From positions 19,190-83,189 of the forward strand of contig CAVGNU010000003.1 of assembly GCA_963630775.1 (NCBI GenBank): a DNA stretch of 64,000 nucleotides. The letters are read 5' to 3'. Shown piece after piece: positions 16,263 to 18,313 of the stretch. The position numbers and the translations under genes were made by a program. This DNA comes from Bacteroides fragilis. Lineage in GTDB: Bacteria; Pseudomonadota; Alphaproteobacteria; Rs-D84. The notes below the pieces were generated by a model that saw only the letters and a program-made list of their open reading frames with translations, did not search any database and was not told where the DNA came from. How positions within the stretch are numbered: the first letter of the stretch is position 1; every line of letters begins with the position of its first letter.

Positions 16263-17162
16263 ATGAAGCGCAGAATTGATAATATGTTACTTGGGCTGTT
16301 GTGGCTGCTGGCGATGACGCTGGGGGTCTGTTTCTGGTTTAACACAATATTTGGATTTAACATATTGTCAGCCGCGCATTGGCAATATTTGGCGTATATT
16401 CAGGCAACACAAACCCCTGTCAGGTCACTGTTTTACATTTCATTTGTTATTATTGTTTTTATAATGGTTGTGGGACTGTACCTGATTATGCGACCACGCC
16501 TGCGTAAAATCCGCCTGCCAATTATGCGCATATCAAAAAATCGTGACAGTGTCGCACCACAACAAAATACAACGTTGCAAAATCAACAGGTTTTGTCCCC
16601 TGCGCCCGCACCAATCGCAAGCGTGCAAACTGGCCCATCAACCGATTTGCGCCCCGCACGTCTGAATACAATTTCATTCGCCACACAACCGACCCCGATG
16701 TCCGCACCAAATGGCATACAACCCAATACCACTGTCGCAGTTGCGGCAACAATCACCGATATTCAACAGGTGTTTATAAATGCTGGTTATACCGTCAAAA
16801 CACCCGCCAGAATTGGCGGAATCAAAACACCACTGTTGGCAATCGGTACGAACGAGGCGTTGTGGCTGGGCGCGAATGGTGCAACGGTGTCTGATGTGCG
16901 CGCGGCGATTGATAAAATGACCGCTGTCTTTGCCGACACGTTGGAAGATATCACGATAAATGTGACGGGGTTTGTACTGGATGCACGCGACGATGCAACA
17001 TCTGAATATGCCGATATTTTAGTATTCCGTTCAATTGATGAATTACGCCAATACATCGCCACGCGCCAGAATATCGCCCCAACGAATATTGACGATGCAG
17101 AAAACTTTAACGCATATTCTGAATACATTGACACCGTTATAAATTACATAGGCAAGATTTAA
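16263..17162 (+). CDS. Hypothetical membrane protein (two TM helices, Q/P/T-rich linker, C-terminal globular domain)
   Basis: 299 aa. TM helices LLGLLWLLAMTLGVCFWF and LFYISFVIIVFIMVVGLYLI, then a low-complexity linker, then a roughly 150-aa domain (IQQVFINAGYTVKTPARIGGIKTPLLAIGTNEALWLG...). First gene of a 4-gene operon. Confidence 0.6.
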   Translation: MKRRIDNMLLGLLWLLAMTLGVCFWFNTIFGFNILSAAHWQYLAYIQATQTPVRSLFYISFVIIVFIMVVGLYLIMRPRLRKIRLPIMRISKNRDSVAPQQNTTLQNQQVLSPAPAPIASVQTGPSTDLRPARLNTISFATQPTPMSAPNGIQPNTTVAVAATITDIQQVFINAGYTVKTPARIGGIKTPLLAIGTNEALWLGANGATVSDVRAAIDKMTAVFADTLEDITINVTGFVLDARDDATSEYADILVFRSIDELRQYIATRQNIAPTNIDDAENFNAYSEYIDTVINYIGKI

Positions 17163-17668
17163 TGCAGTGGTCACAAGATACAGCGCAACGGCGCGCACGC
17201 GAACTGAATCTGGACGACATTCCATTGGTATGTCACCGTCCAGTTGCGACGCGTGTTGATGCGGACTGGTTCGCACGATATAAATCCGCCGCGCACGCAT
17301 TTATGGAATCACTGACCGATTCGGTTGATACGCTGGCATTTATGAATTTAACCCAGAACGAATTTATGGGCCTGATTATGGGGACGCGCATACCCGAAAA
17401 CCTGTCGGTGCGATTTCGCATACCGATAATGTGGGGGGGCACAATTTCACCCGACAATATGTTTTTATGCGCGACATTCCCATCCGCACATAATATGGAC
17501 AGGTTTATTATCGAACAATCAGGCAATGAAATGATTTGGTTGCCCAACCCGTCAAAGAAAGTTTTTGTCCCCGCACACATGGGCGGTGGCGGCGATGGTG
17601 GGAATGCAACAGAAGATCGATTGACACAACTGGCCGCGGCAATGGCGCAATCCCGCGGTATGGAGTAA
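17162..17668 (+). CDS. Hypothetical protein with a degenerate HNH/colicin-DNase-like core motif
   Basis: 168 aa. The start overlaps the previous stop (TAATG). The segment RFRIPIMWGGTISPDNMFLCATFPSAHNMD has the spacing of the beta-beta-alpha-metal core (P-I-x-x-G-G ... D-N ... P-x-x-H) but lacks the leading HH. Confidence 0.55.
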   Translation: MQWSQDTAQRRARELNLDDIPLVCHRPVATRVDADWFARYKSAAHAFMESLTDSVDTLAFMNLTQNEFMGLIMGTRIPENLSVRFRIPIMWGGTISPDNMFLCATFPSAHNMDRFIIEQSGNEMIWLPNPSKKVFVPAHMGGGGDGGNATEDRLTQLAAAMAQSRGME

Positions 17669-17671
17669 GCG

Positions 17672-18112
17672 ATGGCACAAACCATTGATGAATTTTTATC
17701 TGCAATGAAATCACGTGGTGCCAGTATTGCCGCCCCCGCCCCGCATAATGCGCTGATGCTGGCCAATATGGCATTACAGAATATGCGCGCAGCAATGTTG
17801 CCTAAATTTATGATTGATTTATACGCCACATCTGGTGCGATAAATTTGGGTTCGGGTTATATATTTGGCCTGACCGAGGTTTCACGCGGTGCGCGTTACC
17901 CAATCCCAGACATTGTGAGCATCAATCGCGAATTAGCTGGCAATCCGCGCCTGCGCGGTTTGACGGTATTTGGCCGTAACGATTTGTTCTGGTTTGCATT
18001 TAACAGTTTTGGCACATGCGTTATGCTGGACAATTTGAACTTATCGGTTTTGCGCCAATATGCCGATGGCGTGCGCGCAATGCAGGACTGTTTAATCGCG
18101 GGGAAAGTTTAA
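17672..18112 (+). CDS. Hypothetical protein, SUKH (SMI1/KNR4)-like pattern
   Basis: 146 aa. IDEFLSAM...LPKFMIDLYATSGAINLGSGYIFGL...LTVFGRNDLFWFAFNSFGTCVMLD follows the SUKH layout (LP..y..fl...nG ... fg.dg....y.fd). Pattern match by eye only. Confidence 0.5.
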   Translation: MAQTIDEFLSAMKSRGASIAAPAPHNALMLANMALQNMRAAMLPKFMIDLYATSGAINLGSGYIFGLTEVSRGARYPIPDIVSINRELAGNPRLRGLTVFGRNDLFWFAFNSFGTCVMLDNLNLSVLRQYADGVRAMQDCLIAGKV

Positions 18113-18115
18113 TTT

Positions 18116-18313
18116 ATGAAAAAAATATCTGTGTCTTTATCGGGTCATCACACCAGTATTTCACTGGAAAAAGAATTTGTTGACGCCTTGCATGAAATTG
18201 CCGCTGCGCGCGGCACAACCCCCAGTGGAATTATAAACCAGATTGACCGCGCACGCGGGTCGCGCAATCTGTCATCTGCAATTCGCGTTTGGATTTTGAA
18301 AAACTACAAATAA
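18116..18313 (+). CDS. Ribbon-helix-helix (RHH_4-type) small protein
   Basis: 65 aa. SVSLSGHHTSISLEKEFVDALHEIAAARGTTPSGIINQIDRARGSRNLSSAIRVWIL matches the conserved alphaproteobacterial RHH_4 family (..GH.TS.SLE..F...L..IA...G.S...L...ID..R...NLSSA.R.). Confidence 0.8.
   Translation: MKKISVSLSGHHTSISLEKEFVDALHEIAAARGTTPSGIINQIDRARGSRNLSSAIRVWILKNYK

Follow-up and report, generated by a model that had tools for sequence, protein, structure and literature searches.

A four-gene operon in the Rs-D84 chromosome

We analysed a 64,000-nucleotide (nt) stretch of contig CAVGNU010000003.1 (GenBank assembly GCA_963630775.1, positions 19,190 to 83,189 of the forward strand), called the window below, which belongs to the alphaproteobacterial order Rs-D84. 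Our subject is an operon of four plus-strand genes, A to D, separated by -1, 3 and 3 nt, with a further gene of no known family diverging from it. A preliminary description, made from the sequence alone, had proposed the four genes as a candidate undescribed module among core genes. The list of open reading frames (ORFs) reproduced their coordinates, spacings and product lengths, the divergent gene was confirmed at 43 bp from A, and a Pfam scan confirmed that the operon is embedded among core genes, its flanking genes being gltX, a GNAT gene, trmB and a ybeY-lnt fusion (Table 1). Base composition is level across the operon region, i.e. native, and the window is ordinary chromosome that includes recJ, ftsI, thrS, ftsK, secDF, mutL, recA and ruvAC (names read from ORF N-termini rather than assigned by a tool). 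No mobile-element genes were found in the 64 kb.

Direct scans of Pfam, NCBIfam, PADLOC and PHROGs gave nothing usable for A, B or the divergent gene; B had no direct match in any of the four, A belongs to no Pfam family, and the divergent gene had no match in Pfam, NCBIfam or PDB. PADLOC-DB 2.0 returned zero matches at E <= 1 for A, B, C, D and the divergent gene, and PHROGs gave chance-level matches only (E >= 0.06). The same was true of PDB sequence searches, whether the query was a single protein or a profile built for B, C or the divergent gene. None of the profile searches assigned A, B or C to a housekeeping family.

Table 1. Positions of the operon, its parts and its neighbours in the window
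Feature	Position	Strand	Basis or remark
Gene A	16263-17162	+	299 amino acids; ORF list
A residues 1-80, predicted two-helix membrane hairpin	16263-16502	+	AlphaFold2 helices, invariant residues
A residues 81-162, predicted disordered P/Q/T/A-rich tether	16503-16748	+	Low pLDDT; variable length
A linker motif R130-P-A-R-L-N135	16650-16667	+	Conserved in family
A residues 163-299, putative reduced NERD/restriction-endonuclease-like alpha/beta domain	16749-17159	+	Foldseek; conserved terminal helix (YSEYIDTVINYIGK)
Gene B	17162-17668	+	168 amino acids; ORF list
B residues 78-115, putative former beta-beta-alpha metal finger (PEN.SVRFRIP..GG....DN.F.C.TFP...N.DR)	17393-17506	+	hhalign
B residues 142-154, invariant glycine-rich motif GGGDGGNATEDRL	17585-17623	+	Opens C-terminal helix ending ...RGME
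Gene C	17672-18112	+	146 amino acids; ORF list
Gene D	18116-18313	+	65 amino acids; ORF list
Conserved promoter/operator motif CTTTTTACTTTATCAYAAATATGATAYAAT (putative)	16224-16253	+	Within the 43 bp separating A and the divergent gene
Divergent gene	15545-16219	-	224 amino acids; no family; 43 bp from A
Bidirectional terminator-like hairpin	18312-18339	both	A-tract and U-tract; common to convergent ybeY-lnt
GNAT acetyltransferase gene	14303-14860	-	Between gltX and trmB
ybeY-lnt	18326-20332	-	One ORF, 668 amino acids
Lysozyme-like/TPR protein gene	20329-22380	-	683 amino acids; overlaps ybeY-lnt start by 4 nt

Distribution, synteny and selection

A scan for B across one genome per GTDB species found it in 233 species, and we compared the 80 best loci in detail. 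A, B and C occur together in 80/80 of them and D in 79/80, always in the same order and on the same strand, usually flanked by gltX, trmB, the divergent gene and ybeY-lnt. The 1-nt overlap of A and B is kept in 57/79 loci. Homologues number 435 for B, 207 for A and 364 for C, from metagenome-assembled genomes (MAGs) of gut Alphaproteobacteria. All 207 homologues of A come from the window's lineage, and those of B are nearly all 165-170 amino acids long and unannotated. The named records that carry the operon are Candidatus (Ca.) Enterousia and 'Rickettsiales' MAGs, which correspond to order Rs-D84. These bacteria have genomes under 1 Mb, lack most biosynthesis, retain only about 850 genes and lead a partner-dependent life, and they are thought to be obligate symbionts or parasites (PMC12306168).

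The A-B-C-D order also recurs in three diverged lineages (contigs L084, L095 and L097) among other neighbours, which in L084 are AsmA, DUF2062, AcpS and DksA; in L097, D is an uncalled ORF. The four genes thus stay together in different surroundings, so their co-location is not just a by-product of genome-wide synteny. Chance adjacency was considered and is ruled out by the conserved order and spacing, distant loci included. In the same three contigs, a large K/E-rich protein of 454-921 amino acids with no Pfam family precedes A (L084 2229-4994, L095 3807-5171 and L097 1-1098). Those of L095 and L097 are homologous to each other (E = 2e-11), and the window has no counterpart.

Against close relatives, the ratio of nonsynonymous to synonymous substitution rates (dN/dS) was 0.05 for B, 0.07-0.11 for C, 0.07-0.08 for D and 0.10-0.15 for A, and 0.045 for gltX, 0.08-0.11 for trmB and 0.13-0.21 for the divergent gene, with synonymous sites saturated between the genomes compared. 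Loci of Rs-D84 correlate with the window at 0.92 or more in tetranucleotide frequency. All four genes of the operon are real, and they form a vertically inherited operon under strong constraint in this order.

Gene B and the residues of the HNH finger

The AlphaFold2 model of B (predicted local distance difference test, pLDDT, 87; predicted template modelling score, pTM, 0.81) has a strand-strand-helix unit at residues 81-117. Its top Foldseek matches are nearly all HNH domains (Cas8-HNH, ZRANB3, Gme HNH, EsaD and McrA), at E values of about 1-8 that are not significant. The conserved core, P-E-N-x-S-V-R-F-R-x-P-x-x-W-G-G ... D-N-x-F-x-C-x-T-F-P, looks by eye like an HNH finger minus its histidines.

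A profile search of 1.84 billion representatives with B returned 82 matches, including diverged short forms and long forms of 320-430 amino acids that carry an N-terminal MWDWS motif and P/Q-rich low complexity ahead of the B domain. A long form matched the C-terminal part of a plasmid 'HNH endonuclease' by tblastn (E = 1e-10, 31% identity over 149 residues), and this plasmid protein clears the Pfam HNH gathering score (27.1 vs 21.4 bits). The B profile aligned to the same protein in hhalign with E = 3e-5, a probability of 73% and 32% identity over 87 columns, and the alignment pairs VRFRIP of B with VHHKIP of the plasmid protein. These alignments place B among the HNH (His-Me finger) domains, with the kind found in YhhZ and in the IncHI-plasmid proteins. 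The preliminary description had found a nameable family for D alone; that no longer holds, with B of the HNH type, C a likely member of the YrhA family and A probably NERD-like.

In the HH pair of HNH enzymes, the first histidine binds the metal and the second activates water (PMC3113570). When plasmid, long, distant short and window forms are aligned, the plasmid proteins read HH ... N ... YH, the second histidine is gone from all alphaproteobacterial forms of B, and all three histidines are gone from the window's lineage. Among 121 orthologues, none has a histidine at any of the three sites (0 in 121/121). Position 84 is R in 121/121, as invariant as R86 and N99; position 85 is F, L or M in 120/121 and T in one; and position 109 is S or A in 118/121, C in two and N in one. 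Of the HNH catalytic residues, only N99 is retained. B is of HNH descent and very probably not a nuclease.

B is a bare domain with no secretion or delivery domain. Behind the finger it carries a C-terminal extension (LWLPNP.KK.Y.PAH ... GGGDGGNATEDRL ... RGME) that is partly invariant, G147, N148, T150, D152 and R153 being the fixed positions of the tail, and that is modelled at pLDDT 48-70. Such low confidence is as expected of a segment that folds on a partner. The GGNATxDR motif within it is retained in the distant short forms of B and missing from the plasmid HNH proteins.

Gene C

A C-like gene follows each B-like gene we examined; this holds for the window, for the 80 loci and for every distant or metagenome locus that includes DNA downstream of B. 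Among 30 orthologues of C, 25 matched the NCBIfam YrhA family (NF038335), with a best E value of 6.5e-11 and every score under the curated cut-off; the C of the window scores 26 bits vs a cut-off of 55. The Pfam families SUKH_6, SMI1_KNR4 and SUKH_5 gave sub-threshold matches in up to 5/19 C-like proteins, sister lineages included. A broad C profile searched against PDB sequences had a single match, 2icg (E = 0.59), and the hhalign comparison of C with the plasmid YrhA protein was not significant. C is likely a member of the SUKH superfamily. YrhA is not mentioned in the paper that describes SUKH proteins (PMC3113570), and a literature search for a link between YrhA and SUKH found nothing relevant.

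Gene A

The preliminary description had given A membrane helices, a linker and a C-terminal domain, and the AlphaFold2 model agrees. It has helices at residues 2-30, 37-49 and 55-76, pLDDT below 50 over residues 91-160 and a folded C-terminal domain. The hairpin helices 2-30 and 55-76 are modelled at pLDDT 83-94, and W14, F24, F26, H39 and W40 are invariant in the hairpin, which aligns with that of the distant A-like protein of L084 at an hhalign probability of 82%. Basic residues on either side of the hairpin suggest, by the positive-inside rule, that both termini of A are cytoplasmic. The linker is unalignable apart from one short motif, with R130 and P131 the same in every sequence and L134 in almost all; RP(P)xL-like motifs also occur in the A-like proteins of L086, L088 and L084.

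For the C-terminal domain, the best Foldseek matches in PDB, all weak, are to the restriction-endonuclease-fold proteins NucS, Cdn1, Hjc, Bax1 and Card1 (E = 0.02-0.1, probability up to 0.87). Pfam NERD was matched by the A-like protein of L095 only, and weakly (E = 0.007). The A-like proteins of other lineages form one homologous family, and A of the window's lineage is without about 30 residues (strand 3 and 'D-x-E.GDWLADEERFNDEEP') that every other member has. The deleted segment includes the strand that would bear the (D/E)xK motif, and the catalytic D...(D/E)xK pattern does not occur in A of the window's lineage. No plasmid relatives of the A-like proteins were found. Taken together, A looks like an inner-membrane tether with a non-catalytic head. 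A ZipA-like identity for A was also considered; it is based on architecture and is treated with the rival explanations below.

Relatives beside VirD4 and on plasmids

On three database contigs from other lineages that reach far enough upstream (L083, L086 and L088), a long-form B lies directly after a VirD4/TraG gene and before C, with A-like genes ahead of virD4. A metagenome scan with a long-form profile found 20 loci. Counting only contigs with enough upstream DNA, the arrangement A'-A''-VirD4-B(long)-C was present in 16/16. The VirD4-linked metagenome loci range in G+C from 0.32 to 0.59. The two examined for their surroundings, with the operon at 5307-11488 of L100 and 3771-10993 of L112, have chromosomal flanks that include infB, rbfA, a DEAD-box helicase and a MacAB-TolC-like pump (names again read from ORF N-termini). 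The distant forms of B have lysine-rich tails and the VirD4 protein of L083 has an acidic one; a basic tail and an acidic VirD4 tail are a known pairing of signal and receptor.

The five-gene arrangement (L099-L113, L083, L086 and L088) combines two paralogous membrane NERD-like genes, VirD4, a P/Q-rich HNH-derived protein and a SUKH-like gene, and it seems to be undescribed in its own right. About 4 kb from the module, L100 also carries two VirB8 paralogues on the minus strand (69-848 and 1067-1756; Pfam E = 3e-21 and 2e-10), a hint that its genome encodes a type IV secretion system with scattered genes. VirB8 paralogues a few kb away from such a module are typical of the scattered type IV systems of the Rickettsiales type.

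In contig L098, the B-C pair has the short form of B and is more distant from the VirD4 gene upstream of it; one AAA_30 helicase gene and two small genes stand in between, and another AAA_30 helicase gene comes after the pair. The region (L098 977-8549) belongs to an alphaproteobacterial contig with a G+C of 0.63; the helicases on either side of B-C are AAA_30/TraI-like, and no recognisable relaxase domain is present.

Outside these lineages, the pairing of an HNH endonuclease gene with a following YrhA family gene occurs on 458 PLSDB plasmids, 433 of which are classed as conjugative. We examined one of the conjugative plasmids (L090 6359-7936, Enterobacter hormaechei pSHV12-1301491); it is of IncHI type, and the pair sits beside trhG/trhH. 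The role of the pair in plasmids appears to be unstudied. The chromosome of E. coli K-12 has the same combination, with yhhZ ('putative endonuclease') and yrhA adjacent and overlapping by 4 nt. YhhZ has been placed in His-Me finger group 32 as a predicted Hcp-linked type VI effector nuclease (PMC5714182).

Gene D, the control region and neighbouring genes

D matches RHH_4 (Pfam PF13467) over model positions 2-66 of 67 with E = 4.7e-21 and 75 bits vs a cut-off of 25, which bears out the family given to it in the preliminary description. It is highly conserved and is also present in the distant loci L084, L095 and L097. Chromosomal or chromid copies of RHH_4 in Paracoccus, Methylobacterium and Xanthobacter are 40-50% identical to D. 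In the records of other Alphaproteobacteria that we examined, the RHH_4 gene stands alone or beside DUF4169/fumC and never beside A, B or C, so the presence of D points to a specific recruitment in Rs-D84 and a few other lineages. A literature search on RHH_4/PF13467 found nothing relevant. On the Paracoccus ferrooxidans replicon pFER4 (L094 3751-4207), downstream of fumC lies a DUF4169 gene whose end overlaps the RHH_4 gene; DUF4169 and RHH_4 may be a conserved two-gene unit, a pairing that is absent from the other two records examined.

Conservation of the 43 bp that separate A from the divergent gene far exceeds that of the coding DNA. This gap holds the 30-nt motif CTTTTTACTTTATCAYAAATATGATAYAAT, of which at least 24/30 positions are kept in 76/80 loci and most positions are at least 95% identical, and which lies 9-11 nt before the ATG of A in 75/80. 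The motif is absent in the distant relatives and shows no excess above chance elsewhere in the window. Within it, an extended -10 element (TGcTATAAT) at 16245-16253 ends 9 nt before the ATG of A; with the -10 so close and no Shine-Dalgarno sequence, the mRNA of A would be leaderless or nearly so. A 14-bp palindrome with the consensus ATCATAAATATGAT overlaps this element, and the window's copy is ATCACAAATATGCT at 16235-16248. A palindrome over a -10 box is a classic site for a dimeric repressor. D is the candidate to bind it, being the operon's sole DNA-binding protein and highly conserved, and is the probable autoregulator of the operon.

The divergent gene is present in 77/80 loci and absent from the distant ones, and is probably co-regulated with the operon and not a core part of the module. 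Its invariant residues include W54, W56, E58, G96, A97, L123-F-F125, V172-G173 and R206, and its 3' end overlaps trmB by 21 nt. An ISV.P..V pattern in the protein may be DeoC-like.

At the other end of the operon, the preliminary description had noted a strong bidirectional terminator. The hairpin there is terminator-like in both directions, with A5 in front and U6 behind, and its folding energy of -14.2 kcal/mol has a z score of -3.2 vs shuffles. It has 4 G-C pairs, and a two-way terminator of moderate rather than high strength is plausible.

Among the neighbours, the convergent ybeY-lnt is a single ORF that fuses the YbeY endoribonuclease to the apolipoprotein N-acyltransferase Lnt (LNT_N and CN_hydrolase). 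The fused protein used as query was matched in 74/80 related loci, a count of matches to the query and not proof of a one-ORF fusion in each. The next gene encodes a protein with a phage-lysozyme-like segment and C-terminal TPR repeats that is found in 63/80 loci and diverges fast (21-96% identity). The GNAT gene, detectable in just 40/80, is the sole variable gene of an otherwise fixed neighbourhood.

Interpretation and rival explanations

The preliminary description had seen a flavour of toxin-antitoxin, immunity or defence systems in the operon and had offered a conserved lineage-specific complex as the alternative. The descent of B and C from a nuclease toxin and its partner retains part of the first idea. 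The evidence speaks against a working cassette: the histidines are lost in 121/121, A is missing its active-site strand, PADLOC is empty, and the genes are universal and constrained. The alternative fits better, given a universal and syntenic operon under gltX-like constraint.

The explanation that we tentatively prefer, and that in its full form may well be wrong, is that the operon encodes a domesticated toxin-immunity pair serving as a membrane-tethered, non-catalytic adaptor that came from a type IV coupling-protein module and is autoregulated by D. The HNH/YrhA pair would have been kept for its tight mutual binding and not for killing, with C binding B as an immunity protein binds its toxin. 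Disarmed B, with arginines for histidines, might grip nucleic acid or a partner through the finger and the GGNATxDR tail, and A would dock B-C on the inner membrane from the cytoplasmic side, via its C-terminal domain, its RPxRL motif or both. Ancestrally, the complex may have served a type IV coupling ATPase as an accessory or adaptor, or as a substrate with its chaperone. The gene for that ATPase would have left the operon in Rs-D84, where the complex would work either with a translocase encoded elsewhere or alone. D would bind the palindrome that overlaps the -10 and repress A-D and probably the divergent gene. The part of this account that makes the operon a disarmed, domesticated and conserved complex is much firmer than the part that derives it from a coupling-protein module.

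A wider claim, which we regard as doubtful, is that A, B and C are an undescribed coupling-protein accessory complex of gut Alphaproteobacteria that, in Rs-D84, became independent of the ATPase, gained the RHH gene and turned into a near-essential machine handling DNA or protein at the membrane during interaction with a partner cell. A toxin-immunity pair would then have been exapted in full for core cellular functions.

Several points weigh against the adaptor explanation. The structural matches are weak (E = 0.02 for A and about 1 for B), and the SUKH assignment of C rests on sub-threshold matches. No VirD4 or VirB8 genes were found in the 64-kb window or in the lineage's 80 loci of 12 kb, and the VirD4-linked loci come from lineages other than the window's (tetranucleotide correlation 0.45-0.73). 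N99 and D113 of B are invariant and could still hold a metal, and the missing canonical residues do not strictly exclude some other activity of B. Binding among A, B and C and docking at the membrane are steps that we infer; the binding of D to the palindrome is a guess, and the window's copy of that palindrome is imperfect.

The absence of any type IV secretion gene nearby also favours a different kind of complex, a lineage-specific scaffold unrelated to type IV secretion in which a ZipA-like A holds B-C and, through D and the disarmed nuclease folds, DNA at the membrane, for instance to attach the nucleoid to it, to divide or to build the envelope in these reduced cells. Such a scaffold would be expected to occur throughout the order, at the same place between gltX, trmB and ybeY-lnt and with a very low dN/dS, as the operon does; the architecture of A also suits it, with its anchor, long P/Q linker and globular head; moreover, the VirD4-less type of operon has extras of its own, namely the C-terminal helix of A and the RHH_4 gene. 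We nevertheless consider the scaffold unlikely, because outside the lineage A, B and C are seen only beside VirD4, TraI-like helicases and conjugation genes, nothing ties them to division or envelope genes, and the likeness to ZipA is one of architecture only.

The ancestry of B and C bears instead on whether the operon is still a weapon. In an active toxin-immunity or addiction module, B would owe its toxicity to a non-canonical activity or to its grip on an essential target; C would be its neutraliser and D the repressor of the operon, while A would serve to localise or gate B. That B and C descend from a pair of nuclease-toxin and immunity type, that N99 and D113 are invariant, and that small RHH regulators are typical of toxin-antitoxin loci all speak for this. 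It becomes quite improbable once set against the lack of any histidine at the catalytic positions in 121/121 orthologues, the want of a secretion or delivery domain in B and the empty PADLOC search. The genes are present in one copy at a fixed locus in 80/80, polymorphic cassettes and orphan immunity genes are absent, no mobile elements lie nearby, and B evolves as slowly as gltX, unlike the fast-evolving toxin and immunity pairs. Many of the same observations make a defence role against phages or plasmids very improbable, in which A would sense incoming DNA at the membrane, B-C would be a restrained effector and D a regulator. Domains of the NERD-, HNH- and SUKH-like and RHH kinds are common in defence and conflict loci, and relatives of these genes occur on conjugative plasmids and beside DNA-transfer genes. 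Yet PADLOC gave no match and PHROGs chance-level matches only, the distribution is not patchy and forms no defence island, both nuclease folds are without active sites, and the composition is native.

Toxin-immunity pairs are usually seen as fast-evolving, dispensable weapons, and here one appears to be disarmed yet frozen under selection like that on a tRNA synthetase. If the adaptor explanation is right, the operon would be a clean natural example of parts of a conflict system recycled as a structural or adaptor complex. The recurrent, unannotated gene set flanking virD4 could explain how minimal gut cells deal with partner cells. Four 'hypothetical proteins' in at least 233 species would gain names and testable roles.

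Comparison with known systems

The operon is a real module, and we found no earlier description of parts combined in this way, of two active sites lost together, of such a tether to the membrane, of such genes fixed in the core of an order of reduced genomes or of the arrangement beside virD4. Its closest counterparts are yhhZ-yrhA and the IncHI pairs, which share the HNH-type and probably the YrhA-type family, their order and the near-abutting genes. The known HNH proteins of those pairs are 345-392 amino acids long, and in them an N-terminal domain, for delivery or otherwise, precedes an intact VHHKIP...N...YH site; B of the window is unlike them in being a bare domain with RF for HH and an added GGNATxDR tail, in the company of A and D, and in being encoded by a fixed chromosomal core gene. 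With the SUKH immunity systems (PMC3113570; Zhang, Iyer and Aravind 2011), the operon shares a SUKH-like gene directly downstream of an HNH-type gene and a putative restriction-endonuclease-fold domain in the locus. Those systems are polymorphic, secreted, patchy and catalytically intact, whereas the operon exists in one form throughout its lineage, its products would stay in the cytoplasm or tethered to the membrane, and, as far as its motifs indicate, it is catalytically disarmed.

The C-terminal domain of A weakly resembles the fold of NERD (PF08378) and the PD-(D/E)xK nucleases, and A differs from them in its tether of hairpin and P/Q linker and in the missing motif strand. Unlike type II toxin-antitoxin loci and polymorphic toxin cassettes, the operon is single-copy and syntenic in 80/80 loci, neither patchy nor mobile. 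Coupling proteins are known to work with partners such as IcmS-IcmW, in the case of DotL, and the VirD4-recognised effectors with cognate immunity proteins of Xanthomonadales. The operon resembles type IV coupling-protein accessories in that the A, B and C families of sister lineages flank virD4 in one operon; it departs from them in having no virD4 of its own, and its proteins are not related in sequence to known families of adaptors or effectors.

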